Below are positions 3,006 through 15,670 of a stretch of 64,000 bases of DNA, piece by piece. The translations under genes and the position numbers were made by a program. The DNA lies in sequence record ON540300.1; one strand, written 5' to 3'. The notes beneath the pieces were generated by a model, which searched no databases, was not told the origin of the DNA, and saw only the letters and a list, made by a program, of their open reading frames with translations. Within the stretch, counting starts at the first letter, position 1. Every line of letters begins with the position of its first letter. This stretch comes from Escherichia phage ECOH1.

Positions 3006-3539
3006 CTATAATTGTAGGTTGCATTCTTTACTTACCTCTTCAAGTTTAACCTCAGAATCCTTAAGTCGTTTCTTATGAACTCTGAACCTTATTAGTGAGA
3101 TGATGATAACAGCTAAAGGAACAGCATACAAGTACCAAACAGCATATACCTTTGCAGTAATCTGTGTAATGGTCAAGTCTTGAGCTATACAACTGATTGC
3201 TGATACTGCCAGTAACATTGCTAAGAAGAACGCCAGTACCATAACAATACTTAGGCATCCTCTAGCATGGTGTTCATGCTTAATGCACTTATTCTTTTCG
3301 TCAACAACCCTGTTGTAGTCATTTGTAAAGTCTCTGTAGAAAGCTTTCAAGTATTCTTGAGTGTAGCCTTCAAAGCAACCTGTACCATACCAATAATCAC
3401 CACCAAAATGTGCTATGATACCAGTATCTCCATTTGGTTTAGTTACTCTCAAAGATGTGTGATGACGAGTATCTTGATAGTCTATTTTGTATCTTTCTTC
3501 GTAAATCATTTCCCAACCCCTCTCAATCGCTTGTTCCAT
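3006..3539 (-). CDS. membrane protein (177 aa)
   Basis: Hydrophobic segments LSIVMVLAFFLAMLLAVSAISCIA and VWYLYAVPLAVIIISLI. Confidence 0.55.
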   Translation of the reverse strand: MEQAIERGWEMIYEERYKIDYQDTRHHTSLRVTKPNGDTGIIAHFGGDYWYGTGCFEGYTQEYLKAFYRDFTNDYNRVVDEKNKCIKHEHHARGCLSIVMVLAFFLAMLLAVSAISCIAQDLTITQITAKVYAVWYLYAVPLAVIIISLIRFRVHKKRLKDSEVKLEEVSKECNLQL

Positions 3540-3724
3540 TCAAGGTCAATAAACCTTTGCAGGACTTTCCCTCTAGGTGTTACACCTTTTAAATCTGCAT
3601 CGTAACAATGGTAAAAGTCACCTTCAGCGTGTTTACCATAGCATTTTCTGATATTCTGGCTTCTGCGATACTGTTCTAACAAGGACAGTTTGTAGTAATC
3701 TTCAACTGTAGTTAGTTTTTTCAT
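3506..3724 (-). CDS. hypothetical protein (72 aa)
   Basis: ORF track. Confidence 0.4.
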   Translation of the reverse strand: MKKLTTVEDYYKLSLLEQYRRSQNIRKCYGKHAEGDFYHCYDADLKGVTPRGKVLQRFIDLEWNKRLRGVGK

Positions 3725-3807
3725 TCTTTCACCGTAGTGTTTCTCCAGAAACTAAAAAGGGAACTACCTCTCGATAGCTCCCATCATAATCAATATTGTA
3801 TACTCGG

Positions 3808-4389
3808 TCAAGAGTATTTTTTAGGCAGTAATGCGCTACGCTTGTTACTCTCTTCACTCAATAGTGCGATAAATTCATCACCTTTCCCTTTCCACGGACT
3901 GAATGTAGGGATGTGCTCTCTGATAGCCTCAATCACTGTTTTCAGGGCATTGTTCTTTAACCACCAATCAGACACTGCCGAAGCTACGATGTAGTAAGCA
4001 CCGTCATCTGTGAAGATTGGCTCAGAGATACATGGTGAAATCATAGTGGTGATGATAGAGCCATTATTCATGTAATATGTTCTTTTTTCAACCTTATCAA
4101 GAAGCTTGTGAAGGTCTGCAAAGAGACTTACCACCTCTTTATGGTCAATATCTTTTTCAAGATTTGCTCTATACTTTAATAGTGCAGCATCAACCTCTTT
4201 ATCATTAAATTTGAAGTACTGGACTTCTTCATTCACACATACACTGATGTTGTTGGTGTTTATCGTCAATTTGCACAGTTTGACTGGAGAGTTAATGTTG
4301 GTCTGAAAAAGTGCTACACAGCCTTCTACATTTCCGAAATGCTTGACTAATGTAACTTCTGGTTGGATATGCTCATGTTCTTCTGACAT
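3808..4389 (-). CDS. hypothetical protein (193 aa)
   Basis: ORF track. Confidence 0.55.
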   Translation of the reverse strand: MSEEHEHIQPEVTLVKHFGNVEGCVALFQTNINSPVKLCKLTINTNNISVCVNEEVQYFKFNDKEVDAALLKYRANLEKDIDHKEVVSLFADLHKLLDKVEKRTYYMNNGSIITTMISPCISEPIFTDDGAYYIVASAVSDWWLKNNALKTVIEAIREHIPTFSPWKGKGDEFIALLSEESNKRSALLPKKYS

Positions 4390-6314: not shown

Positions 6315-6946
6315 TATGCCTCCCCTGCTGGGTTAACTGTAACTGTTGCTGCATTAGATGTCACAGAGCCACCTGCACCAGTAACTACACAGGTGTAGCT
6401 TCCTGAATCAGCAGTTGTTGCACCTTCTTTGGTGTAAGTTGCAGTAGTTGCATCGAGGATGTCTTCCTCACCTTTCTTCCATTGGTAACCTGTCGCACCT
6501 GTTGCCACAACATTCAGTGTTAAGGTCTCACCTTCAGTGATTTCTTGATTGGCTGGTTGCTGAGTAATTGCTGGTGGCTTAATAGCATCTTTCAACTTAG
6601 CATTCAGCATTGAGAACGGCTTAACTCTTGCCAGCCATTCACAGTAAATTGTGTCAACATCTTTACCATTGATAATTGCATATTGTAAGTCCATGAAGAA
6701 GTCAGAAGTTCTCATTTGAGCACCAATGCTGTAAAGCAGCTCATCACTAAATGGAACTTTATAGTCTGGTTTGTAGTCAAACTTCTTAACTTCTGCAATG
6801 TCAGCTTCAGGCCAATACGAACTATAGGTGAGTGGTAAAATAGACTCTTGATATGTTCTAAAATCATATCTCTTACCAGTCTTTACATTTGCAATGAAGC
6901 CCTTCACAAACTCTTTGAAGTCTGGGTAAGTCTTTGCTTTAATCAT
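6314..6946 (-). CDS. protein with C-terminal Ig-like domain (210 aa), paralog of 6943..7314
   Basis: C-terminus EGETLTLNVVATGATGYQWKK...DSGSYTCVVTGAGG is Ig-like; N-terminal 120 aa align with the adjacent ORF. Confidence 0.6.
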   Translation of the reverse strand: MIKAKTYPDFKEFVKGFIANVKTGKRYDFRTYQESILPLTYSSYWPEADIAEVKKFDYKPDYKVPFSDELLYSIGAQMRTSDFFMDLQYAIINGKDVDTIYCEWLARVKPFSMLNAKLKDAIKPPAITQQPANQEITEGETLTLNVVATGATGYQWKKGEEDILDATTATYTKEGATTADSGSYTCVVTGAGGSVTSNAATVTVNPAGEA

Positions 6947-7314
6947 TTCTTTTTAGCCTCTAAATGTGCGTTTAGTCTAAAATAACCTTTGTGGTGTGGA
7001 GATACATCACCAACAACAACACCTTTAACCTTATAACCTTTACCAATTACATACTGGATATCCATAAGGAATCTACCAAGACCAACAATATGGAACATTG
7101 GATATAATAGATTCTCAGAGTCTGGAATATTGATTTCAGGTTTGTAGGTGCGTTGTTCGATTGTTGGTGTAATATCTTCTTCAGGCCATTTACTGAGTCT
7201 CCATGTCAAAGGTGTTGGGATAACATCATTAAGGTTGTATCTTTCACCATTTTGCACGGAATTGATATAGGATTGTAGGAAGCAATAAAAGTCTTTTGCA
7301 CTCTTAGCTTTCAT
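6943..7314 (-). CDS. hypothetical protein (123 aa), paralog of N-terminal domain of 6314..6946
   Basis: Shared blocks WPE(E/A)DI, YKP, LLY, F(L/F)MD(I/L)QY, LNA(H/K)L. Confidence 0.55.
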   Translation of the reverse strand: MKAKSAKDFYCFLQSYINSVQNGERYNLNDVIPTPLTWRLSKWPEEDITPTIEQRTYKPEINIPDSENLLYPMFHIVGLGRFLMDIQYVIGKGYKVKGVVVGDVSPHHKGYFRLNAHLEAKKK

Positions 7315-8343: not shown

Positions 8344-8420
8344 GGCAGACCTACAGCTTTAAGTAAGATGGTACAGTAATCCATACAACAAGTCAAGAAC
8401 TATTGCAAGTTAAAAAAGTT

Positions 8421-8460: not shown

Positions 8461-8571
8461 TAGAAGATAACTTAAAAGGTTCCTCTAAAAAGGCTATTTA
8501 AACAGATATCTTTCTGGATATCTATCTTTTATCTTAAAAGCCTTTTAAGAGGTCTTATAAGAGGCATACCA

Positions 8572-8943
8572 ATGAAAAACAGAACAAACAAAGGCCAGTT
8601 TAAAAAAGGCCAGTCTGGAAACCCATCTGGGAGACCAAAAGGCTCTCGTAACAAAAGCTCACTCGTAAAAGCTCAACTGACCATTGATAATTCTGCTGAG
8701 TTTGCTGCAAAGCTGTTTGAGGCGATTGTTACAAGGGACGCTGCTAAGCTTGCAGAGTTCGGTTTGACGACTGCCGATGTAAACCTGAAGTCGATGATGG
8801 AAGCTGGTAAAACTATCATGACCCACTCAGCAGGTGAGATGAAAGCGATTGCAGCAGACACTAAGAAGACCCCTGATAATGGTGGTCAGTCACAGACAGA
8901 TAACAAACCAACGTTCTCTGCTGTAGCGACTCTCAAAAAATAA
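8572..8943 (+). CDS. small basic protein with N-terminal GQSGNPSGRPKG motif (DUF5681-like)
   Basis: Motif FKKGQSGNPSGRPKG read in translation; family assignment from memory. Confidence 0.6.
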   Translation: MKNRTNKGQFKKGQSGNPSGRPKGSRNKSSLVKAQLTIDNSAEFAAKLFEAIVTRDAAKLAEFGLTTADVNLKSMMEAGKTIMTHSAGEMKAIAADTKKTPDNGGQSQTDNKPTFSAVATLKK

Positions 8944-8955
8944 TTTTAAAAGGTG

Positions 8956-8991
8956 TTGACAGACTCTACAGAGTTGCTCTAAAGTCTGTCA
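8956..8991 (+). promoter_or_regulatory. TTGACA box embedded in perfect 9-bp inverted repeat TGACAGACT / AGTCTGTCA
   Basis: Read directly; lies 35 bp upstream of the 9025 gene. Confidence 0.45.
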
Positions 8992-9024
8992 CATCAAACA
9001 ACAAATGAGAGAAGAGAGTAAAAT

Positions 9025-10440
9025 ATGAGCGAATTATTTAAACATGCGCACCTTCATGCAGGTCGAACTGAAAATGGTGCTGTAAACCATACTTCATCAA
9101 TGTCTGCTCTTGTGGACTTTTACAAAGCTGCTGGTTCCAGCCGTAGCAATGTAGAAATCTTACCAGACCTGTTCTACAAAGCTTTGCGTGAGGATGTTGA
9201 TGTTGCAGTTCGTATTTTACTGCATATGCGAGATGTACGAGAAGGTATGGGTGAGCGTAAAGCTTTCCGAACTGTTTTACTTCAAGCGATTGAAGATAAA
9301 GTTTTAGAGCCTACACAGGTTCTTCGCATTATGGATAAGATTGCAGAACTTGGTCGTTTTGATGACTTCAAAATCTTCGTAGGTACTCGTTTTGAGACAG
9401 ATGCCTTCAAACATTTAGAAGCAGCATTACTAGACCCTGCAACAGCAGGTTTAGCGGCTAAGTGGTTACCACGAGTAAAACCACGCCACAAACAGTTTGT
9501 AAAACGTTTCTGTAAGTTTGCAAACTTAAGTGAGAAGGAGTATCGCACACTGTTATCTGCACTGTCTGATACGGTTGAGCAAAAAATCTCTGCTAATGAG
9601 TTTGGTAAGATTGACTACAGCAAGATTCCTTCACTCGCTGCTGCACGTTACCAAAAGCTCTTTAACCGTAAAGATGGGGAACGTTACAAAGCTTACATCG
9701 AGTCCCTCTCAAAAGGTGAGGTTAAGATTAACGCTGGTGCTGTTTACCCATACGATGTGATTAAATCTATCAAGTATGGTAATGCAGATGTTGCTAATGA
9801 GCAGTGGAAAGCACTACCAAACTGGATGGCAGAAGGTGAGAACATCTTGTGTATGACTGATGTTTCAAGCTCAATGTCTTGGGTGAATCTTGGTTCAATC
9901 ACTGCCCTTGATATTGGTGTATCACTTGCTTTGTATGTAGCAGAACGCAACACTGGTTGCTTTAAGAATGAGTTAATGGTTTACTCAACAAACCCTCACT
10001 TCATCGAACTGAGTGGTGATTTACGAAACCGTCATCGTCAGGTAATGCGTCATGTTGAATATGGTTCAACTAACTTACAAGCAGCTTTTGACCGTATTCT
10101 TGAGGTAGGTAAGCGAAACAACTTGACTCAGAAAGATATGCCAAGTAAGCTTATTATCTTCTCTGATATGGAGTTCACTCAGGTTGATGGAGCTAACGGT
10201 CGTACAAACTTTGAAGCAATTCAGAGTAAGTACAAAAAAGCTGGATACGAAATGCCACAACTAGTATTCTGGTACTTAGCAAACCGTAATGGTACTTGCG
10301 AAGTATCTGTTAAGGATAATGGTGTAGCGATGGTATCAGGGTTCTCTCCAGCCACTTTAAAAGCTCTGCTTGGTGGTGAGAAGTTTGACCCAATCAGCGT
10401 AATGCTCAAAGCAGTAATGATTGACCGTTACATCTGGTAA
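9025..10440 (+). CDS. vWA-domain protein with MIDAS motif; architecture resembles Ro60/TROVE (Rsr-like) RNA-binding proteins
   Basis: DxSxS motif DVSSSMS near residue 280, later hydrophobic IIFSDMEF strand, helical N-terminal 270 aa; homology unverified. Confidence 0.7.
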   Translation: MSELFKHAHLHAGRTENGAVNHTSSMSALVDFYKAAGSSRSNVEILPDLFYKALREDVDVAVRILLHMRDVREGMGERKAFRTVLLQAIEDKVLEPTQVLRIMDKIAELGRFDDFKIFVGTRFETDAFKHLEAALLDPATAGLAAKWLPRVKPRHKQFVKRFCKFANLSEKEYRTLLSALSDTVEQKISANEFGKIDYSKIPSLAAARYQKLFNRKDGERYKAYIESLSKGEVKINAGAVYPYDVIKSIKYGNADVANEQWKALPNWMAEGENILCMTDVSSSMSWVNLGSITALDIGVSLALYVAERNTGCFKNELMVYSTNPHFIELSGDLRNRHRQVMRHVEYGSTNLQAAFDRILEVGKRNNLTQKDMPSKLIIFSDMEFTQVDGANGRTNFEAIQSKYKKAGYEMPQLVFWYLANRNGTCEVSVKDNGVAMVSGFSPATLKALLGGEKFDPISVMLKAVMIDRYIW

Positions 10441-10458
10441 AAAGTTTTAAAAAGGGTA

Positions 10459-10488
10459 TTGACAATGTGTTTGATACCCTTTAATATG
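10459..10488 (+). promoter_or_regulatory. sigma70-like promoter inside palindrome AAAGGGTAT / ATACCCTTT
   Basis: TTGACA 10459-10464, TAATAT about 18 nt downstream; flanking 9-bp inverted repeat. Confidence 0.45.
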
Positions 10489-10549
10489 TTCTACATAGAA
10501 ACGAAATGAGAGCTTTTCTAAGATACTGAAAAATATTTTAAAAAAGTTC

Positions 10550-10578
10550 TTGACAACCACTAAAAAATAATGTTAAAG
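10550..10578 (+). promoter_or_regulatory. candidate promoter for tRNA array
   Basis: TTGACA at 10550-10555; weak -10; 30 bp upstream of first tRNA. Confidence 0.35.
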
Positions 10579-10605
10579 TGGTTACATAGAGTTTGAAAAG
10601 TTTAT

Positions 10606-10682
10606 CTCTGTTTAGCTCAGCTTGGTAGAGCGTTCCGTTTGGGGCGGTAAGGCCGGAGGTTCAAGTCCTCCAACAGAGACCA
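10606..10682 (+). tRNA. tRNA-Pro (anticodon TGG)
   Basis: Cloverleaf by eye: acceptor 7/7, D-stem gctc/gagc, anticodon loop ttTGGgg, T-loop TTCAAGT, CCA encoded. Confidence 0.8.
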
Positions 10683-10689
10683 AATTAAT

Positions 10690-10767
10690 GTTCCAGTAGA
10701 CAAAATGGTAAAGTCACCACTCTTTCAAAGTGGATATTTGAGGGTTCAAATCCCTTCTGGAACGCCA
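10690..10767 (+). tRNA. tRNA-Glu (anticodon TTC)
   Basis: Acceptor 7/7, perfect anticodon stem, loop ctTTCaa, T-loop TTCAAAT, CCA encoded. Confidence 0.8.
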
Positions 10768-10858
10768 GTTTTGACAGAAGACCAATTGCAGCAAACTTAA
10801 TCTTATTCATCTGACACGAAATCGGACAAAGAAGAGATTTGGTCTGGTCATTAAGAAT
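10768..10858 (+). ncRNA. structured spacer element A (5' ACAGAAGACCA ... 3' TGGTCTGGTCATT)
   Basis: Terminal stem AGACCA/TGGTCT; same family as elements at 10936 and 11441. Confidence 0.4.
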
Positions 10859-10935
10859 TGCGGGTATAGAGAAAGGGCGTCTCACATGTCTCATTAGCAT
10901 GGTATCGGCAGGTTCGACTCCTGCACCCGCCTCCA
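10859..10935 (+). tRNA. tRNA with CAT anticodon (Met or Ile-lysidine type)
   Basis: D-stem gaga/tctc, anticodon stem catgt/gcatg, loop ctCATta, T-loop TTCGACT; acceptor has one mismatch. Confidence 0.6.
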
Positions 10936-11018
10936 AATTTACAGAAGACCGTTTACAGCAATATTTATTAAATTTTTAGCGGAAAAATTGAAAGATACGG
11001 TCTGGTAATACTAAACAT
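10936..11018 (+). ncRNA. structured spacer element B (5' ACAGAAGACCGTTTACAGCAA ... 3' ACGGTCTGGTAAT)
   Basis: Terminal stem AGACCGT/ACGGTCT enclosing internal hairpin AATTTTT-agcgg-AAAAATT. Confidence 0.4.
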
Positions 11019-11095
11019 GGTTAGGAAGCACATAAGGTATGTGCGGTCGCCTGTTAAGCGAATGGCACAGGGTTCGAATCCCTGACTAACCGCCA
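11019..11095 (+). tRNA. tRNA-Asn (anticodon GTT)
   Basis: Acceptor ggttagg/actaacc, anticodon loop ctGTTaa, T-loop TTCGAAT, CCA encoded. Confidence 0.75.
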
Positions 11096-11104
11096 AATTT
11101 AAAT

Positions 11105-11192
11105 GTGTCGTTATCCCGTAGATGGTAGCGGTGGGGACTGTAAATCCCTTGTCATTGAGACTCGGTAGGTTCGACTCCTACACGGCACACCA
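11105..11192 (+). tRNA. tRNA-Tyr (anticodon GTA), long variable arm
   Basis: Acceptor gtgtcgt/acggcac, anticodon loop ctGTAaa, 15-nt variable arm, T-loop TTCGACT, CCA. Confidence 0.7.
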
Positions 11193-11198
11193 AATAAA

Positions 11199-11276
11199 GG
11201 TTATGTAGTTTAATCTGGTTAAAATACTCCCCTGTCACGGGAGATGATGAGGGTTCAAATCCCTTCGTAACCGCCA
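11199..11276 (+). tRNA. tRNA-Asp (anticodon GTC)
   Basis: Acceptor ggttatg/cgtaacc, anticodon stem ctccc/gggag, loop ctGTCac, T-loop TTCAAAT, CCA. Confidence 0.75.
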
Positions 11277-11440
11277 AATTATAATAAGTATTTCAAAATG
11301 ATGTTTGAGAGGGCTATTTAGCCCCTCCCTTAAAGAGTTCTTACGAGTATTCTTTAAAGGAGCAGAAGGCCAAATTCAGCAAGTTACTTAAAATTTCAAG
11401 CCAATTTAATTTTGAAAAATTTAAAACTTGGTCTGGCTCA

Positions 11441-11597
11441 ACAATTTTACAGAAGACCGTTTACAGCAAAACTTAAACAATCTATTTCTCCGGTAAAGAA
11501 AAGGCGAAGGTTCGATTCCTTCACTCGGCAGATGTCGAGTTGGTGTAATGGTAGCACTTAAGATGATAAACAACGGTCTGGTAATTATCTTTGTAGG
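11441..11597 (+). ncRNA. structured element C: permuted tRNA-like module (T-arm, closed acceptor-like helix, D-arm; no anticodon arm) inside a spacer-repeat stem
   Basis: T-arm GAAGG-TTCGATT-CCTTC 11517-11533; acceptor 3' strand ACTCGGC 11534-11540, loop agat, 5' strand GTCGAGT 11545-11551; D-arm GTGT-aatggta-GCAC 11554-11568; enclosing stem AGACCGTT 11466-11473 / AACGGTCT 11583-11590. Confidence 0.55.
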
Positions 11598-11730
11598 TGA
11601 GCTATTAAGCTTACCTGTGAGTATGCGACCACAAAGGGTGAAAGGGTAAATTCTAGATTTAAACCCAACAAGGCACATCGCTACAGACCTTAAGCAAGTC
11701 TGGGTAGCTTATCTACAAAGATAATTTAAT

Positions 11731-11806
11731 GGAAGTGTAGCAGAATGGTGATGCGGCAGACTTTTAATCTGACAGGCGATGGGTTCGAATCCCTCCACTT
11801 CTACCA
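11731..11806 (+). tRNA. tRNA-Lys (anticodon TTT)
   Basis: Acceptor ggaagtg/cacttct, anticodon loop ctTTTaa, T-loop TTCGAAT, CCA; T-stem has 2 mismatches. Confidence 0.65.
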
Positions 11807-11810
11807 ATAT

Positions 11811-11887
11811 GGTTCAGTCGCAGATAAGGTAATGCAGGGGTCTCATAAGCCCTATGAATGTGGGTTCGATTCCCATCTGAACCTCCA
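11811..11887 (+). tRNA. tRNA-Met (anticodon CAT), second copy
   Basis: Acceptor ggttcag/ctgaacc 7/7, anticodon loop ctCATaa, T-loop TTCGATT, CCA. Confidence 0.7.
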
Positions 11888-11888
11888 A

Positions 11889-11964
11889 GCTGGTATAGTT
11901 AAGAAGGTTATAACACTCCCCTGATAAGGGAACATCGGTGGTTCGATTCCACCTACCAGTACCA
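11889..11964 (+). tRNA. tRNA-Ile (anticodon GAT)
   Basis: D-stem gtta/taac, anticodon loop ctGATaa, T-stem ggtgg/ccacc, CCA. Confidence 0.75.
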
Positions 11965-11979
11965 ATTTCAATAAAGTTG

Positions 11980-12008
11980 TTGACATTGAGATGTGACTAC
12001 TTTATAGT
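11980..12008 (+). promoter_or_regulatory. sigma70-like promoter inside tRNA array
   Basis: TTGACA 11980-11985, 17-nt spacer, TATAGT 12003-12008. Confidence 0.6.
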
Positions 12009-12331
12009 AACTGAAAATGATTCAGCATATGTATAATTCAAACACCAATACATGAGCATTAGACGTAATGCAATGTGGGGAAATTTGTTGTACATATTCT
12101 GAATAGTTTTCGTTGCGTAGCGTCTATTTTGCAAATTTAAAATAAATGCAAACGACAATGTTTTTCTGGCAGTAGCTTGATAGGCTAAACACCAGTGAGG
12201 TCTTCCAATCCCTCATCAAAGAATTTGGCGTACTAGCCCACGGTATGATTAATAAGGTGGGCAACATTTTAAAGGGTATCCCTTATTGGGCTTGGCTTAA
12301 ATGCAATGAGTACCCTTTAAAATGTTAATTA

Positions 12332-12413
12332 CGGGGCGTATCTCAGCGGTCTTCTAAACCGCCGTTAACCGAGTAAGTGGAGTATGCGGGTTCGAGTCCT
12401 GCCGCCTCGACCA
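12332..12413 (+). tRNA. non-canonical tRNA-like gene, anticodon arm consistent with TCT (Arg)
   Basis: Perfect arm gcggt-ctTCTaa-accgc, T-arm and acceptor cggggcg/cgcctcg with CCA; D-arm region only about 7 nt and about 23-nt variable region. Confidence 0.45.
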
Positions 12414-12556
12414 ATTTAGTTAGCAGATTGCTTAGACGACCTTATCGGGTCTCCGTGTAAGGAGGTGGTCTGTATCTCATGTTTTCCAGAACATGTAAAT
12501 AATCTGAGAAGGGGCTTTACAGTGTTGTGAAAATACGGTAAGCTTCGAATTACAAT

Positions 12557-12639
12557 ATGGGACGATGTTAAGACTCTAAGGCATGAGCAACGGCTTCCAA
12601 CACCGTTTCAAAGGGGTTCAACTCCTCCGTCCCATGCCA
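12557..12639 (+). tRNA. tRNA-Trp-like (anticodon CCA) with extended D region
   Basis: Acceptor atgggac/gtcccat 7/7, anticodon loop ttCCAac, T-loop TTCAACT, CCA; D region about 7 nt too long. Confidence 0.5.
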
Positions 12640-12652
12640 AAGTCTTATTAGG

Positions 12653-12740
12653 GGTAGGTAGCGGCTAATGGTAGCCAAACTGTCTTGAAAACAGTTGCCA
12701 CTGTAGAGATACGGTGAGGGTTCGACTCCTTTACTTACCG
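12653..12740 (+). tRNA. tRNA-Ser (anticodon TGA), long variable arm
   Basis: 3-bp D-stem, anticodon loop ctTGAaa, about 20-nt variable arm, T-loop TTCGACT; CCA not encoded. Confidence 0.7.
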
Positions 12741-12997
12741 CCTAATAAGATTTACACCGTCCATGCTTGCTCGCATTTTCGGTTTATCCATCGTGTATTG
12801 TCGTACACACTGATAAAGCACCTAGTAGGTGTCACGGAGAAGAGATAATATCAAGCTCTCCAAAGGTTCTAGTCACCGGATTAAACAAGACTATGCAAAG
12901 ACCTATTTAGGTCTTTTTAGAGGGCTTCTAAGGTTATTACAGCTTGTTGTGGAACCTTGTTGCTTAGGTTCTTAGAAGTTCTCTAAAAAGATTTAAT

Positions 12998-13075
12998 GGG
13001 AGATTGACGGTAATTGGTAAACCTACCATCCTTAGAAGTTGGTGTTTGAGGGTTCGAATCCCTTGTCTCCTACCA
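12998..13075 (+). tRNA. tRNA with anticodon TAG (Leu box), short variable loop
   Basis: Acceptor gggagat/gtctcct, Leu-like D-loop taattggtaaa, anticodon loop ctTAGaa, 5-nt variable loop, CCA. Confidence 0.55.
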
Positions 13076-13082
13076 AATTAAT

Positions 13083-13158
13083 GCAGGTGTAGCAAAATGG
13101 TTATGCGGCTGACTCTTAATCAGTAAGACGATGGGTTCAATTCCCTCCACCTGTACCA
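13083..13158 (+). tRNA. tRNA-Lys (anticodon CTT)
   Basis: Paralog of Lys-TTT gene; anticodon loop ctCTTaa, T-loop TTCAATT, CCA. Confidence 0.7.
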
Positions 13159-13164
13159 AACATT

Positions 13165-13240
13165 GGGGATGTAGTTTACATGGTTAAAACATAAGTTTTG
13201 CAAACTTAAGTACAGGGTTCAATTCCCTGCTTCTCCACCA
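13165..13240 (+). tRNA. tRNA-Ala (anticodon TGC)
   Basis: D-stem gttt/aaac, perfect anticodon stem taagt/actta, loop ttTGCaa, CCA. Confidence 0.75.
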
Positions 13241-13246
13241 ATTAGT

Positions 13247-13321
13247 GCATCCATAGTTTAAACGGGAAAATTACAGTCTTCCAAACTGAGGTTGAGGGTT
13301 CGATTCCCTCTGGATGCTCCA
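13247..13321 (+). tRNA. tRNA-Gly (anticodon TCC)
   Basis: Acceptor gcatcca/tggatgc 7/7, anticodon loop ctTCCaa, T-loop TTCGATT, CCA. Confidence 0.75.
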
Positions 13322-13328
13322 AATTAAT

Positions 13329-13404
13329 GCTCCTATCGTATAATTGGCTATTACGGTTGCCTTGTAAGCAACTTATCAGGGTTCGAATCCTTGTGGGAGC
13401 ACCA
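13329..13404 (+). tRNA. tRNA-Thr (anticodon TGT)
   Basis: Anticodon stem gttgc/gcaac perfect, loop ctTGTaa, T-loop TTCGAAT, CCA. Confidence 0.8.
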
Positions 13405-13499
13405 ATTCAGAGGTCAAGTGAAAGACCGCTGGTGTCAACTGAAGACCGTAACAAATTCCACGGAGTTGAGTTAGCGGCACAACTTCAGACCTCTTCCAT
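13405..13499 (+). ncRNA. structured spacer element D, degenerate relative of element C
   Basis: Contains CTGAAGACCGTAACAA (5' motif variant) and GGAGTTGAGTTAGCGGCAC resembling the acceptor-5'/D-arm part of element C; outer stem AGAGGTC/GACCTCT. Confidence 0.35.
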
Positions 13500-13574
13500 A
13501 CTCGCTTAGTTTATATGGTAAAACATCACCCTTACAAGATGAAGAAAAAGGTTCAAGTCCTTTAGTGAGTACCA
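13500..13574 (+). tRNA. tRNA-Val (anticodon TAC)
   Basis: D-stem gttt/aaac, anticodon loop ctTACaa, T-stem aaagg/ccttt, CCA. Confidence 0.7.
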
Positions 13575-13575
13575 T

Positions 13576-13653
13576 GTTCCAGTATCCCAATTGGCAGAGG
13601 ATGCAAGCTCAAACCTTGTACTAGTGACGGTTCGAATCCGTCTTGGAACACCA
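13576..13653 (+). tRNA. tRNA with anticodon CAA (Leu box), short variable loop
   Basis: D-arm tcc-caattggcaga-gga (Leu-like), anticodon stem gcaag/cttgt, loop ctCAAac, 6-nt variable loop, CCA. Confidence 0.6.
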
Positions 13654-13658
13654 ATTTT

Positions 13659-13734
13659 GCAGGATTAGTTCAAATGGATAGAGCAACAGTCTACGAAGCT
13701 GTTAATAGGGGTTCGAATCCCTTATCCTGCGCCA
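13659..13734 (+). tRNA. tRNA-Arg (anticodon ACG)
   Basis: Acceptor gcaggat/atcctgc 7/7, anticodon loop ctACGaa, T-loop TTCGAAT, CCA. Confidence 0.75.
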
Positions 13735-13753
13735 AGTTAAAGAGGCTATTTAG

Positions 13754-14311
13754 ATGAGATATTTGAAGTATGCTTCATGGATTTTCTTAGCTTTGTTAGA
13801 ACCATTTGCAGCAATCTTAGCAGTTATCTTAGCACCTTTTGTAGTTCCATTCTACAGTGAGAAGAAAGGACATCTACCTTTCGGGTTCAGATGGATGGAA
13901 ACTTATGACAACCCAATTGATGGCGATGAAGGTCATGTCAAAAGATGGGCTAAGATTAGAAAGATTGGTAAGCTTGGTATCTATATGCAGAGAGTCGGTT
14001 GGCTCTGGAGAAACAAAGCTTATAACTTCTCTTACCATGTGTTAGGAAGAGATGTAAAAGATGTTACTAAGTGGAAAGGTAATATCAATGTAAGTTCTAA
14101 CCCTGAAGATAATCAGACAGGTTATCTCCTAATGTGGAACAGTAATGCTTGGGGGTTATTCGCTTTTGTACCATCAATTAAAATCTTTGGTAAACAATTC
14201 TACTGGAGAATTTATGTTGGATGGAAACTTAAAAGTGTTGTCCCAGAAGAAAGAGCATTCTCAAGGGAAAGAGTTATGTTGGCATTCTTTATCCATCCAC
14301 TAAGAAAATAA
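13754..14311 (+). CDS. membrane protein encoded inside the tRNA array (185 aa)
   Basis: ORF track; N-terminal hydrophobic segment WIFLALLEPFAAILAVILAPFVVPF; preceded by AGAGGCTATTTAG motif. Confidence 0.6.
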   Translation: MRYLKYASWIFLALLEPFAAILAVILAPFVVPFYSEKKGHLPFGFRWMETYDNPIDGDEGHVKRWAKIRKIGKLGIYMQRVGWLWRNKAYNFSYHVLGRDVKDVTKWKGNINVSSNPEDNQTGYLLMWNSNAWGLFAFVPSIKIFGKQFYWRIYVGWKLKSVVPEERAFSRERVMLAFFIHPLRK

Positions 14312-14319
14312 AGATTTAA

Positions 14320-14395
14320 AGGGGATTAGTTTACAAGGTTAAAACCTCGGTCTTTGAAATCGAAGAAGTTGGTTCAATTCCAACATCCCCCGCCA
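14320..14395 (+). tRNA. tRNA-Gln (anticodon TTG)
   Basis: D-stem gttt/aaac, anticodon loop ctTTGaa, T-stem gttgg/ccaac, CCA. Confidence 0.75.
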
Positions 14396-14397
14396 AT

Positions 14398-14476
14398 GCT
14401 CCATTACTCCAATTGGCAGAGAGGCCAGACTTAAAATCTGTGTTATGTATCGGTTCGAATCCGATATGGAGTACCA
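14398..14476 (+). tRNA. tRNA with anticodon TAA (Leu box), short variable loop
   Basis: D-arm ctc-caattggcaga-gag (Leu-like), anticodon loop ctTAAaa, 7-nt variable loop, T-stem atcgg/ccgat, CCA. Confidence 0.6.
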
Positions 14477-14481
14477 AATTT

Positions 14482-14557
14482 AGCGGTATAGCATAACTGG
14501 CAATGCAGCAGTCTCTGAAGCTGTCTTATTAAGGTTCAAATCCTTATGCCGCTGCCA
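14482..14557 (+). tRNA. tRNA-Gln (anticodon CTG)
   Basis: D-stem gcat/atgc, anticodon loop ctCTGaa, T-stem taagg/cctta, CCA. Confidence 0.75.
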
Positions 14558-14588
14558 CTTCTAAGGATTCTTACGAGAGTCCTTAAAT

Positions 14589-14664
14589 GTGGCCTTATCA
14601 TAAATGGTAATGACCCATGCTGTGAACATGGTCTATACGGGTTCAAATCCCGTAGGTCACCCCA
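14589..14664 (+). tRNA. tRNA-His (anticodon GTG)
   Basis: Perfect anticodon stem ccatg/catgg, loop ctGTGaa, discriminator C, CCA; no encoded G at -1. Confidence 0.75.
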
Positions 14665-14669
14665 ATTTA

Positions 14670-14744
14670 TAGTCCAAGTAGCTTATATGGTTAAAGCGCG
14701 TGTCTGAAAAACATGAGAAGAGGGTTCAAATCCCACTGGGCTAC
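14670..14744 (+). tRNA. tRNA-Phe (anticodon GAA)
   Basis: Acceptor tagtcca/tgggcta, anticodon stem cgtgt/acatg, loop ctGAAaa, T-loop TTCAAAT; CCA not fully encoded. Confidence 0.65.
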
Positions 14745-15013
14745 CAATTTCAAAGGTGCTTAATGAAAGAGATGACAGAACAAGGTAAGGAGATTTTTAA
14801 TCTCTTAAAAACCGGTAGAGGGTTTTCTAATCCCTTATTACTGGTGCAGCAGTTCTCGGTGGAACCGTAGCTGCCTCTACATCACTTGTAAGCTCTATTA
14901 GCTCTGTAACAGACCCTACAATAAAGGATAAACTTGTTGCTGCTGGACTTACAACAGTTCTGCTTAACAGCTTTACAACGAGTCTGACAAGCACTACATC
15001 AACCACTAAGACA

Positions 15014-15496
15014 TTGGCAGATTACGGTCAAAAGTCCATTGATGAGTTTTCATCACGTATGCAGGTAGCAAAAGGATATTCCAATGTTATGGGTGCAGCA
15101 GGAGAGCAAGTCGGTTGCACACCATTTAGTGGTATTATGGGTGTTGCTACAGAGTACGGTCAAAAAGCTATTGACACAATTAACAGTACACTAGATGGTG
15201 TTAATGATGTATTAAGTGACTTACAAGATGCTATTGATAAAGGTCTTGATACTGTTTCTGATTTAGCTAATCAAGCTGTTAGTAAGATTAATGAAGGTAT
15301 CTCGAAGATTACAGCTTATGCAGATGAAGTTGTGCAGATGATTGAAGAAGAAGCTGCCCTTATTGCAGAGTACCTTAAAACGAATATCAATGGGTTCTTA
15401 GCAGGTATCTTACCAGACTGGTTTGATGATGCTTGTAAAACTGGTGTAATTGACACTATTGCAACACCAGAAATGAAGAACGCATTACAGAAATAA
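15014..15496 (+). CDS. hypothetical protein (at least 160 aa); N-terminus uncertain
   Basis: ORF track start is TTG; the same frame stays open and protein-like back to 14831 with no ATG or GTG. Confidence 0.5.
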   Translation: MADYGQKSIDEFSSRMQVAKGYSNVMGAAGEQVGCTPFSGIMGVATEYGQKAIDTINSTLDGVNDVLSDLQDAIDKGLDTVSDLANQAVSKINEGISKITAYADEVVQMIEEEAALIAEYLKTNINGFLAGILPDWFDDACKTGVIDTIATPEMKNALQK

Positions 15497-15497
15497 T

Positions 15498-15590
15498 GGA
15501 AGATTAACCCTAAAAGGTAAGGGAGCAGTTTGCTAAACTGCCAGTAGCTGAGAAATCGGTGTACCAGTTCAAGTCTGGTATCTTCCTCCA
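15498..15590 (+). tRNA. tRNA-Ser (anticodon GCT), long variable arm
   Basis: Acceptor ggaagat/atcttcc 7/7, perfect anticodon stem gcagt/actgc, loop ttGCTaa, about 21-nt variable arm, T-loop TTCAAGT, CCA. Confidence 0.75.
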
Positions 15591-15594
15591 ATTT

Positions 15595-15670
15595 GAATCC
15601 GTGACAGAAATGGCTATGTACCTGTCTGCAAAACAGGTTTATAAGGGTTCGAGTCCCTTCGGATTCTCCA
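15595..15670 (+). tRNA. tRNA-Cys (anticodon GCA)
   Basis: Acceptor gaatccg/cggattc 7/7, perfect anticodon stem cctgt/acagg, loop ctGCAaa, T-loop TTCGAGT, CCA. Confidence 0.8.

Follow-up and report, generated by a model that had tools for sequence, protein, structure and literature searches.

Ro60/Y RNA particles, known from human autoimmunity and from bacterial stress, are a long studied and poorly understood system of RNA surveillance. Among Escherichia phages the closest described case is gp130 of Bas63 (Escherichia phage JohannRWettstein), which the PhageMaP study found to be structurally similar to Ro60 and encoded directly upstream of tRNA genes, with the remark that 'some tRNA genes ... 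are possibly Y RNAs' (PMC11482910). Deletion of gene 130 cripples Bas63 on a host carrying the defence gene Ppl and complementation rescues it (PMC11482910). A member of the same protein family was shown by HHpred in a Listeria-phage study to be similar to the Rsr of D. radiodurans, and Y RNAs were speculated upon there. The TROVE-type Ro60 of Thermus phage phiLo binds the Y-like RNAs Yrl1 and Yrl2 together with host PNPase (PMC12135203), and YrlA RNAs beside the TROVE genes of mycobacteriophages were described in 2014 (PMC4201824). Here we compare with these systems a locus of Escherichia phage ECOH1 (ON540300.1), analysed as a stretch of 64,000 nucleotides (nt) that we call the window. A gene at 9025..10440 (+ strand; ATG start, 471 amino acids (aa)) codes for a protein of predicted Ro60 fold, and the tRNA array downstream of it holds four unannotated RNA elements (E1-E4, 10768-11590, + strand) that are probably the partners of this protein. 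The idea of a Ro60-like protein is not new, as it was published for Bas63 gp130, which is 98% identical; what is new here is a defined candidate set of Y-like RNAs and their link to genes of the DUF2828 family.

The window is a Felixounavirus (Felix O1-like myovirus) genome, whose positions 8500-11500 matched 296 phage records, with 98.9% identity to Escherichia phage vB_EcoM_E9. The gp130 orthologue bas63_0130 (MZ501086) agrees with our protein in 461 of 471 residues and lies in the same gene order. Pfam matched DUF7788 (PF25043, residues 275-455, expect value (E) 4.8e-43) and DUF2828 (PF11443, E 1.1e-28), both above the curated cut-offs (147.4 bits against 27.1 and 100.7 bits against 29, respectively), and PHROG 850 (phrog_850, 'RNA-binding protein') matched over residues 1-471 (E 1e-182). 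Homologues were found by tblastn in 709 phage records, whose hosts are Gram-negative, Gram-positive and actinobacterial (phages of Escherichia, Salmonella, Mycobacterium, Vibrio, Listeria, Staphylococcus, Campylobacter, Enterococcus, Bacillus and Aeromonas). Their labels there include hypothetical, vWFA, DUF2828, 'RNA-binding protein' and, in mycobacteriophages, 'Ro-like RNA binding protein'. These matches show that the open reading frame (ORF) is a real gene and not a chance one. Judged by sequence, its product is a full-length member of a separate DUF2828/DUF7788 family, for which the literature searched describes no defined biochemical function or RNA partner; DUF2828 itself has only incidental mentions there, in plants and tardigrades.

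On comparing sequences, Pfam gave neither TROVE nor VWA on the 471-aa protein (no TROVE at E <= 10), and TROVE (PF05731) was absent from all 71 relatives scanned one by one, among which VWA_2 was weakly matched in 44 cases and vWA_Ro60 (PF25045) in 14 (best E 1.7e-4). A phmmer search of the Protein Data Bank (PDB) with the protein gave nothing useful, and NCBIfam no relevant match. When profiles were used against the PDB sequences, Ro60/TROVE chains came on top both with the 71-sequence profile (E 0.8-2.2) and with a more diverse 19-sequence profile (E 0.046-0.22), in both cases over the strand of the metal ion-dependent adhesion site (MIDAS) only, where DVSSSMS is paired with 'IDVSASM' of Ro60. 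As there is no TROVE match and the profile matches are marginal, TROVE membership by sequence was rejected.

The structural comparison gave a different result. The AlphaFold2 model from the 71-sequence alignment (predicted local distance difference test 90.1, predicted template modelling score 0.89) has an all-helical N-terminal domain of HEAT-like repeats (residues ~28-263; 9106..9813, + strand) and an alpha/beta vWA domain (residues ~274-464; 9844..10416, + strand), the latter also marked by DUF7788 and by vWA-only structural matches. In a Foldseek search of the PDB all of the top 11 matches were Ro60, Rsr or Thermus-phage Ro60 (E 1.5e-8 to 1e-6), with full-length alignments of 508-560 columns and template modelling scores of 0.54-0.66, except for Deinococcus Rsr (2nvo, 0.40). 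Isolated vWA/MIDAS domains form the next tier (E >= 1.3e-3), some 3 orders of magnitude behind. In BFVD, a library of viral structures, members of the family rank first, those of giant viruses included, followed by the TROVE proteins of a crAss-like phage and a Gordonia phage. The MIDAS motif DVSSSMS (9859..9879, + strand; D279, S281, S283) is completed by T349 and D381, so that the full set (DxSxS...T...D) is present, and the five residues are invariant both in the 71-sequence family alignment and in the 19-sequence alignment, which reaches down to 30% identity. The helical half has its own invariant residues in both alignments (R69, R78, D114, K146 and E185), with D70, R72 and R111 being near-invariant. 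The model is thus a toroid of helical repeats closed by a vWA domain, which is the Ro60 fold as predicted; the likeness to Ro60 holds by modelled structure and not by sequence, and DUF2828/DUF7788 has diverged from classical TROVE/Ro60 almost past sequence recognition. The first-pass annotation of this locus, which had proposed a TROVE + vWA protein, was therefore partly supported. It described the ORF and its D279-V-S-S-S-M-S285 motif exactly, the helical N-terminal and vWA C-terminal halves are borne out by the model, and the structural matches are to complete Ro60 proteins and not to a generic vWA domain alone; it was right on the fold and on a likely ribonucleoprotein (RNP), and wrong on TROVE membership, where Pfam finds DUF2828 instead.

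It may be added that the BFVD relatives in giant viruses come from Pithovirus, Mimiviridae, Cafeteria roenbergensis virus, Marseillevirus and Bodo saltans virus, some of them as longer fusion proteins of ~760 aa, so that the family is not restricted to phages. The annotation of Aeromonas phage Aeh1 also notes a similarity to an Arabidopsis protein.

The array following the gene (10606..15670, + strand) has 25 tRNAs called by ARAGORN, with Rfam tRNA matches. Its first member, a tRNA-Pro, starts at 10606, 165 nt after the stop codon and on the same strand, in agreement with the first-pass annotation, which had also noticed tRNA-like structured elements in the array. These elements are real, but they are unannotated elements in the gaps and not the tRNAs themselves. 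Exact copies of AGAAGRCCNNNNNCAGCAA are found at 10776, 10943, 11364 and 11451, each followed by GGTCTGG, with no others in the 64 kilobases (kb) of the window. They mark four elements, of which the first begins 328 nt past the stop codon of the gene, with a common closing fold: an outer stem of 4 base pairs (bp), an internal loop of AGA opposite G, and an inner stem of 7-8 bp. Their terminal stem can be described as a 7-bp helix with a 3-nt bulge opposite a 1-nt bulge, after which comes UUnCAGCAA. For scoring, two covariance models were used, R1 being built from five Felix-like long elements only and R2 from eight diverse members.

Three of the elements are short and without a tRNA-like domain. 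E1 (10768..10856, + strand; R1 33.6 bits, R2 32.3 bits) fills the gap between tRNA-Glu and tRNA-Met exactly, and its closing helix (10772-10850) reads TGAC-AGA-AGACCAA ... TTGGTCT-G-GTCA, followed by UUGCAGCAA; it is kept in SUSP2, Sf17, Bas63 and the loci L013 and L016. E2 (10935..11014, + strand; R1 53.2 bits, R2 50.8 bits with E 1.3e-8) likewise fills the gap between tRNA-Met and tRNA-Asn, with the closing helix TTAC-AGA-AGACCGT ... ACGGTCT-G-GTAA at 10939-11008. E3 (11356..11442, + strand; R2 29.1 bits) has the closing helix GAGC-AGA-AGGCCAA ... TTGGTCT-G-GCTC (11360-11439) and was included because of its exact match to the structural descriptor given below and its synteny, since its score alone is within the range of cross-matches to tRNAs. 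The fourth element, E4 (11443..11590, + strand; R2 133 bits), is long and of the YrlA type. Inside its closing helix (11447-11584) we find, in order, UUUACAGCAA, a hairpin, a T-arm GAAGGUUCGAUUCCUUC, a second hairpin and a D-arm-like GUGUAAUGGUAGCAC. The T-arm is preceded by GGC, with which it gives the GNCGAAG motif reported for YrlA, and 11473-11523 gives a weak Rfam match to the T-arm of tRNA. Other weak Rfam matches in the window ('Dicty class I', tmRNA-like, miRNA) were dismissed as noise.

The descriptor (outer stem, A.A, AG+5 ... 5+CT, G, outer stem) was used with zero mismatches only, as one mismatch already gives ~2.9 matches per 64 kb of shuffled sequence; a looser form was dropped for its many background matches. 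Under this condition all matches were on the + strand and shortly after the gene, and they came from the window, SUSP2, Sf17 and three metagenomic relatives; no other place in any of the sequences fetched was matched. Both stems vary in a compensatory manner among paralogues and orthologues, the outer one as TGAC/GTCA, TTAC/GTAA, TTGC/GCAA, GAGC/GCTC and GAAC/GTTC, and the inner one as AGACCAA/TTGGTCT, AGACCGT/ACGGTCT, AGACTAT/GTAGTCT, AGACTCT/AGAGTCT and AGTGTCT/GGACACT. Such changes are also seen between genera, and for E4 in all helices. In a 19-sequence RNA alignment, which was fitted to the model and hence gives somewhat optimistic figures, 94.8% of the cells are paired (66.5% when shuffled, 40-45% when slid), both sides change in 29 of the 35 pairs, and the covariation score is 0.414 as against 0.119 for shuffled and 0.04-0.085 for slid partners. 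These results bear on one alternative, a generic vWA protein whose likeness to Ro60 comes from the shared vWA and an unrelated helical domain, the array repeats being decayed tRNA genes or chance. The missing Pfam TROVE match, the confinement of the profile matches to the MIDAS strand (E 0.046-2.2) and the tRNA-derived arms within E4 would all suit it; the full-length structural matches to Ro60 and the RNA covariation test largely refute it, and we consider it very improbable.

The same RNAs occur beside the gene in other phages. Rfam YrlA gave two full-length matches directly 3' of the DUF2828 gene in Klebsiella phage phi1_175008 (36.4 and 34.3 bits; local E 3e-6 and 1.3e-5) and one in the same position in mycobacteriophage Whirlwind (38.3 bits, E 8e-5), all being significant by E-value and below the gathering score of 69 bits (RF02553). 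R1 finds the same Klebsiella-phage RNAs, at 66.7 bits (E 5.5e-12) and 41.7 bits, and elsewhere a Bacillus phage (PK-3, 51 bits), a Yersinia phage (P778, 38 and 31 bits) and Whirlwind (27 bits). With R2, Whirlwind rises to 49.4 bits and Pseudoalteromonas phage J2-1 is added (60.5 bits, ~200 nt upstream of the gene). Both the CAGCAA motif and the extra hairpin, absent from the Rfam YrlA consensus, are present in these distant RNAs. We left marginal matches of 26-30 bits (loci of Listeria, Staphylococcus, Aeromonas, Aeh1 and Campylobacter phages) out of the count, since true tRNAs and tRNA dimers score alike.

We then scanned 80 loci of family members in IMG/VR, 13 of them Felix-like and 67 diverse (homologues of 39-46% identity). 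The RNA set is kept in all 13 of the Felix-like contigs. In the diverse ones there are 23 model matches at E < 1e-3, all on the strand of the gene and 22 of them off predicted tRNAs; these 22 are spread over 13 of the 67 loci (flanks of 6 kb), with nearest distances between RNA and gene of 9, 11, 49, 51, 110, 137, 196, 310, 320, 751, 926, 1592 and 1784 nt. By simple arithmetic, uniform placement in the 6-kb flanks would put only ~3% within 200 nt. On this evidence, drawn from sequence, the RNA family appears to travel with DUF2828 genes across phage lineages, at least 6 of them beyond that of the window. tRNAs are found within 6 kb of the gene in 26 of the 67 diverse loci, and all 110 are on its strand. 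Also, same-strand tRNAs lie <=620 nt from the gene in 5 of 9 sampled non-Felix lineages (Klebsiella, Campylobacter, Enterococcus, Bacillus and Listeria phages).

The likeliest picture, which we hold with moderate confidence, is a particle of the Ro60 type in which the tRNA-processing machinery produces the RNAs and the protein acts against Ppl. As modelled, the gene product would be an RNA-binding protein of the Ro60 type, in which the vWA domain, its MIDAS intact, closes a ring of helical repeats, and E1-E4 would be its partners. Because they are set between tRNAs, E1-E4 probably share the transcript of the array, from which tRNA-trimming enzymes would free them: RNase P by cutting at the 5' end of the tRNA that follows, and 3' trimming of the tRNA that precedes. 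The bulged terminal stem would be where the protein binds, with the MIDAS face of the protein free for a protein partner. By analogy with Rsr/YrlA and the Thermus-phage Ro60, the particle may act on RNA metabolism in infection, where it could tether or block a host ribonuclease or deal with RNA that is damaged or misfolded.

Several points weigh against this picture. The similarity of the protein to Ro60 is not significant by sequence, and Rfam YrlA and Y_RNA gave no match at E <= 1 in the window or at E <= 10 in 2.2 kb, so that the link of the window RNAs to YrlA is a chain through the Klebsiella-phage RNAs. The scores of E1 and E3 (29-33 bits) are within the range that true tRNAs reach, the elements taken singly have weak thermodynamic z-scores (-0.7 to -2.1), which were rejected as evidence in themselves, and the covariation figures carry the optimism of a fitted alignment. 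Within 5-6 kb of the gene, 54 of the 67 diverse loci gave no convincing match to the RNA model, and the same was true of the phages of Vibrio, Acinetobacter, Enterococcus, Listeria, Campylobacter and Staphylococcus that were sampled.

Some of these observations would also be expected if the protein acted alone as a counter-defence factor, a Ro60-like scaffold that directly inhibits Ppl or other host factors, for instance through the MIDAS face, with the RNAs being independent of it (tRNA-mimic decoys, processing spacers or array regulators) and linked to it through a shared accessory tRNA module. MIDAS sites of vWA domains typically bind protein ligands, the MIDAS residues are invariant here, and Rea1/Midasin MIDAS-UBL complexes are among the structural matches. 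A shared tRNA module could also account for the co-occurrence of tRNAs with the RNA in 10 of the 13 RNA-positive loci, and a protein that acts alone for the 54 loci with no detectable RNA copy near the gene. Further, gp130 alone, supplied from a plasmid or in the T7 genome, restores T7 on the Ppl strain (PMC11482910). T7 is without these RNAs, and gp130 even raises its plating above that of the no-defence control, so the sole measured phenotype does not require the phage's own RNAs, which may thus serve another function of gp130, or none. In the T7 experiments, however, the protein could still use host RNAs. Outside tRNA arrays the RNA abuts the gene (9-51 nt) in several lineages; the locus L039 has four RNA copies and no tRNA, and L084 and L086 are also without tRNAs. 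The linkage spans hosts as different as Bacillus, Mycobacterium and enterobacteria with no protein neighbour conserved, and the terminal stem reproduces the Ro60-site geometry. On balance we find a protein acting alone somewhat unlikely.

A wider and more tentative proposal can also be made. DUF2828/DUF7788 proteins and 'CAGCAA' RNAs may possibly form an unrecognised and widespread viral RNP, a second, sequence-independent branch of Ro60/Y RNA whose RNAs ride on tRNA processing and which phages, and possibly giant viruses, use in counter-defence, e.g. by blocking or redirecting a nuclease (Ppl, PNPase) or by shielding phage tRNAs. Were this true, a sequence-divergent Ro60 branch would be common in phages of very different hosts and reach into giant viruses, and it would carry a defined genetic phenotype in countering the uncharacterised Ppl defence in E. 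coli. It would also offer a tractable model, as Bas63 and E. coli are genetically accessible, the candidate RNAs are mapped to the nucleotide, and their conserved bulged stem and CAGCAA motif lend themselves to mutation. More generally, phage 'tRNA arrays' hide structured RNAs that annotation misses or labels as small proteins, which matters for reading knockout screens and for engineering therapeutic phages. A case in point is found in Bas63 (MZ501086), where two candidate RNAs lie under bas63_0137 and bas63_0138, small minus-strand coding sequences annotated as 'hypothetical protein' that cover the long Y-like RNA and its surroundings (6749-7023, about 11420-11700 of the window). Both are probably mis-annotated, and knockout phenotypes credited to them would then really reflect the RNA.

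Turning to the neighbourhood, the gene directly 5' of the Ro60-like one (8572..8943, + strand) codes for a 123-aa protein with Pfam DUF5681 (E 1.6e-13). In Felix-like phages it always has this position (the same order is found in L013-L016, SUSP2, Sf17 and Bas63), and the two genes are possibly co-transcribed. The DUF5681 gene is not next to homologues outside the Felix-like phages, and on clustering ~2000 ORFs of 82 loci no protein neighbour was found to be common across lineages, by which DUF5681 was rejected as a general third component. The neighbours also bear on a variant of the Ro60-type particle in which protein and Y-like RNAs would form a platform where tRNAs cut by host anticodon nucleases are checked or repaired, in concert with RNA ligases, as in the cellular rsr-yrlA-rtcBA operon, the action against Ppl being one instance of a broader protection of RNA. 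In many lineages the gene is in or beside tRNA arrays, and repair-type enzymes lie downstream of it in some phages (RtcB and an RNA ligase at 1.4-4 kb in Listeria phage cka15, RNA ligase 2 at 3.7 kb in Aeromonas phage 4_4572, a CCA-adding enzyme at 3 kb in Acinetobacter phage ME3); a comparative-genomics review assigns phage TROVE proteins to RNA-repair systems. In the window, though, the surroundings of the gene code for no RNA ligase, kinase or RtcB, and none recurs in the neighbour clustering, while the describers of Ppl proposed DNA and not RNA as its target. We consider this variant unlikely.

Promoters were called by consensus match only. A sigma-70-like match (TTGACA-18-TAAAGT; 8956..8985, + strand; 10/12 to consensus) lies within an inverted repeat 40 nt upstream of the ORF, and two more on the + strand (10459-10487 and 10550-10579, 10/12 each) lie between the ORF and the first tRNA and likely drive the array of tRNAs and Y-like RNAs. 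A promoter-like module, in which an A/T-rich 'TTTTAAAAAG'-type stretch is followed by NTTGACA, recurs at 8405-8420, 8944-8962, 10443-10465, 10533-10556 and 11965-11986, that is, upstream of the DUF5681 and Ro60-like genes, in two copies upstream of the tRNA array, and ahead of one long non-coding stretch. The copies at 8956-8992 and 10451-10482 are inside inverted repeats and could be operators or terminators.

Within the array, 12332-12410 (+ strand) is tRNA-like, above the Rfam tRNA gathering score (31.7 bits) and without an ARAGORN call; it sits roughly at the position of tRNA-Arg(TCT) in SUSP2, Sf17 and Bas63, and may be a degenerate or interrupted tRNA-Arg. Four stretches (11965-12331, 12411-12652, 12743-12997 and 14747-15497) have no gene, tRNA or Y-like element and give insignificant Rfam matches only, such as weak tmRNA-like ones at 12013-12330; the best promoter match of the region (11980-12008, 11/12) precedes one of them. 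A 185-aa gene in the middle of the array (13754-14311, + strand; Pfam DUF7338, E 9e-62) has an apparently membrane-associated product. Two further observations were made beside DUF2828 genes of other phages. In Listeria phage cka15 (OR088597), 3428-3979 (+ strand), ~1 kb upstream of the gene, gives a full-length match to ROOL RNA (RF03087; 90.1 bits, E 8e-17, below the gathering score of 99.1) that overlaps the three tiny ORFs CKA15_059-061. It probably explains the 'three highly transcribed regions' left unassigned by a published multi-omics study. In Aeromonas phage Aeh1, a 122-nt 'tRNA-Val' is annotated at 9184-9305, 2.8 kb downstream of the gene. It has no ARAGORN call, Rfam tRNA matches it with a large insertion and our RNA models score it marginally (22-28 bits); either a tRNA with an intron or a tRNA-like RNA that has diverged may be present here.

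The locus can now be set against the known systems. It is closest to Bas63, whose gp130 is an orthologue and is also placed between a DUF5681 gene and a tRNA-Pro. The Bas63 study named no RNA partner, and the candidates put forward here differ from those it considered in being unannotated gap elements and not annotated tRNAs. With Ro60/Rsr and Y RNA/YrlA the locus shares the predicted two-domain ring with a MIDAS and the adjacent, same-strand genes for the partner RNA, whereas the protein is shorter (471 aa as against 500-538) and has no match to the TROVE model. The known Ro60 site of Y RNA is a 7-bp helix with a 3-nt bulge opposite a 1-nt bulge (PMC4726728). The phage stem is like this site in design only, since the letters and the strand polarity differ, and the likeness is not proof of homology. 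E4 resembles YrlA in its permuted tRNA-like domain, in which the T-arm comes first, then a hairpin and then the D-arm. It differs from the Rfam YrlA family, by which it is missed, in having its own UUnCAGCAA motif and an extra hairpin. Also, multiple RNA copies set between tRNA genes distinguish this locus from the Ro60/YrlA systems. As for the Salmonella rsr locus, its rtcBA operon and RtcR regulator have no counterpart in the window. Yet the arrangement of the RNAs is like that of Salmonella YrlA/YrlB, with one long tRNA-like RNA and shorter ones that have a common protein-binding stem and lie beside the protein gene, the difference being that here there are three short forms, placed among genuine tRNAs and carried by a phage.

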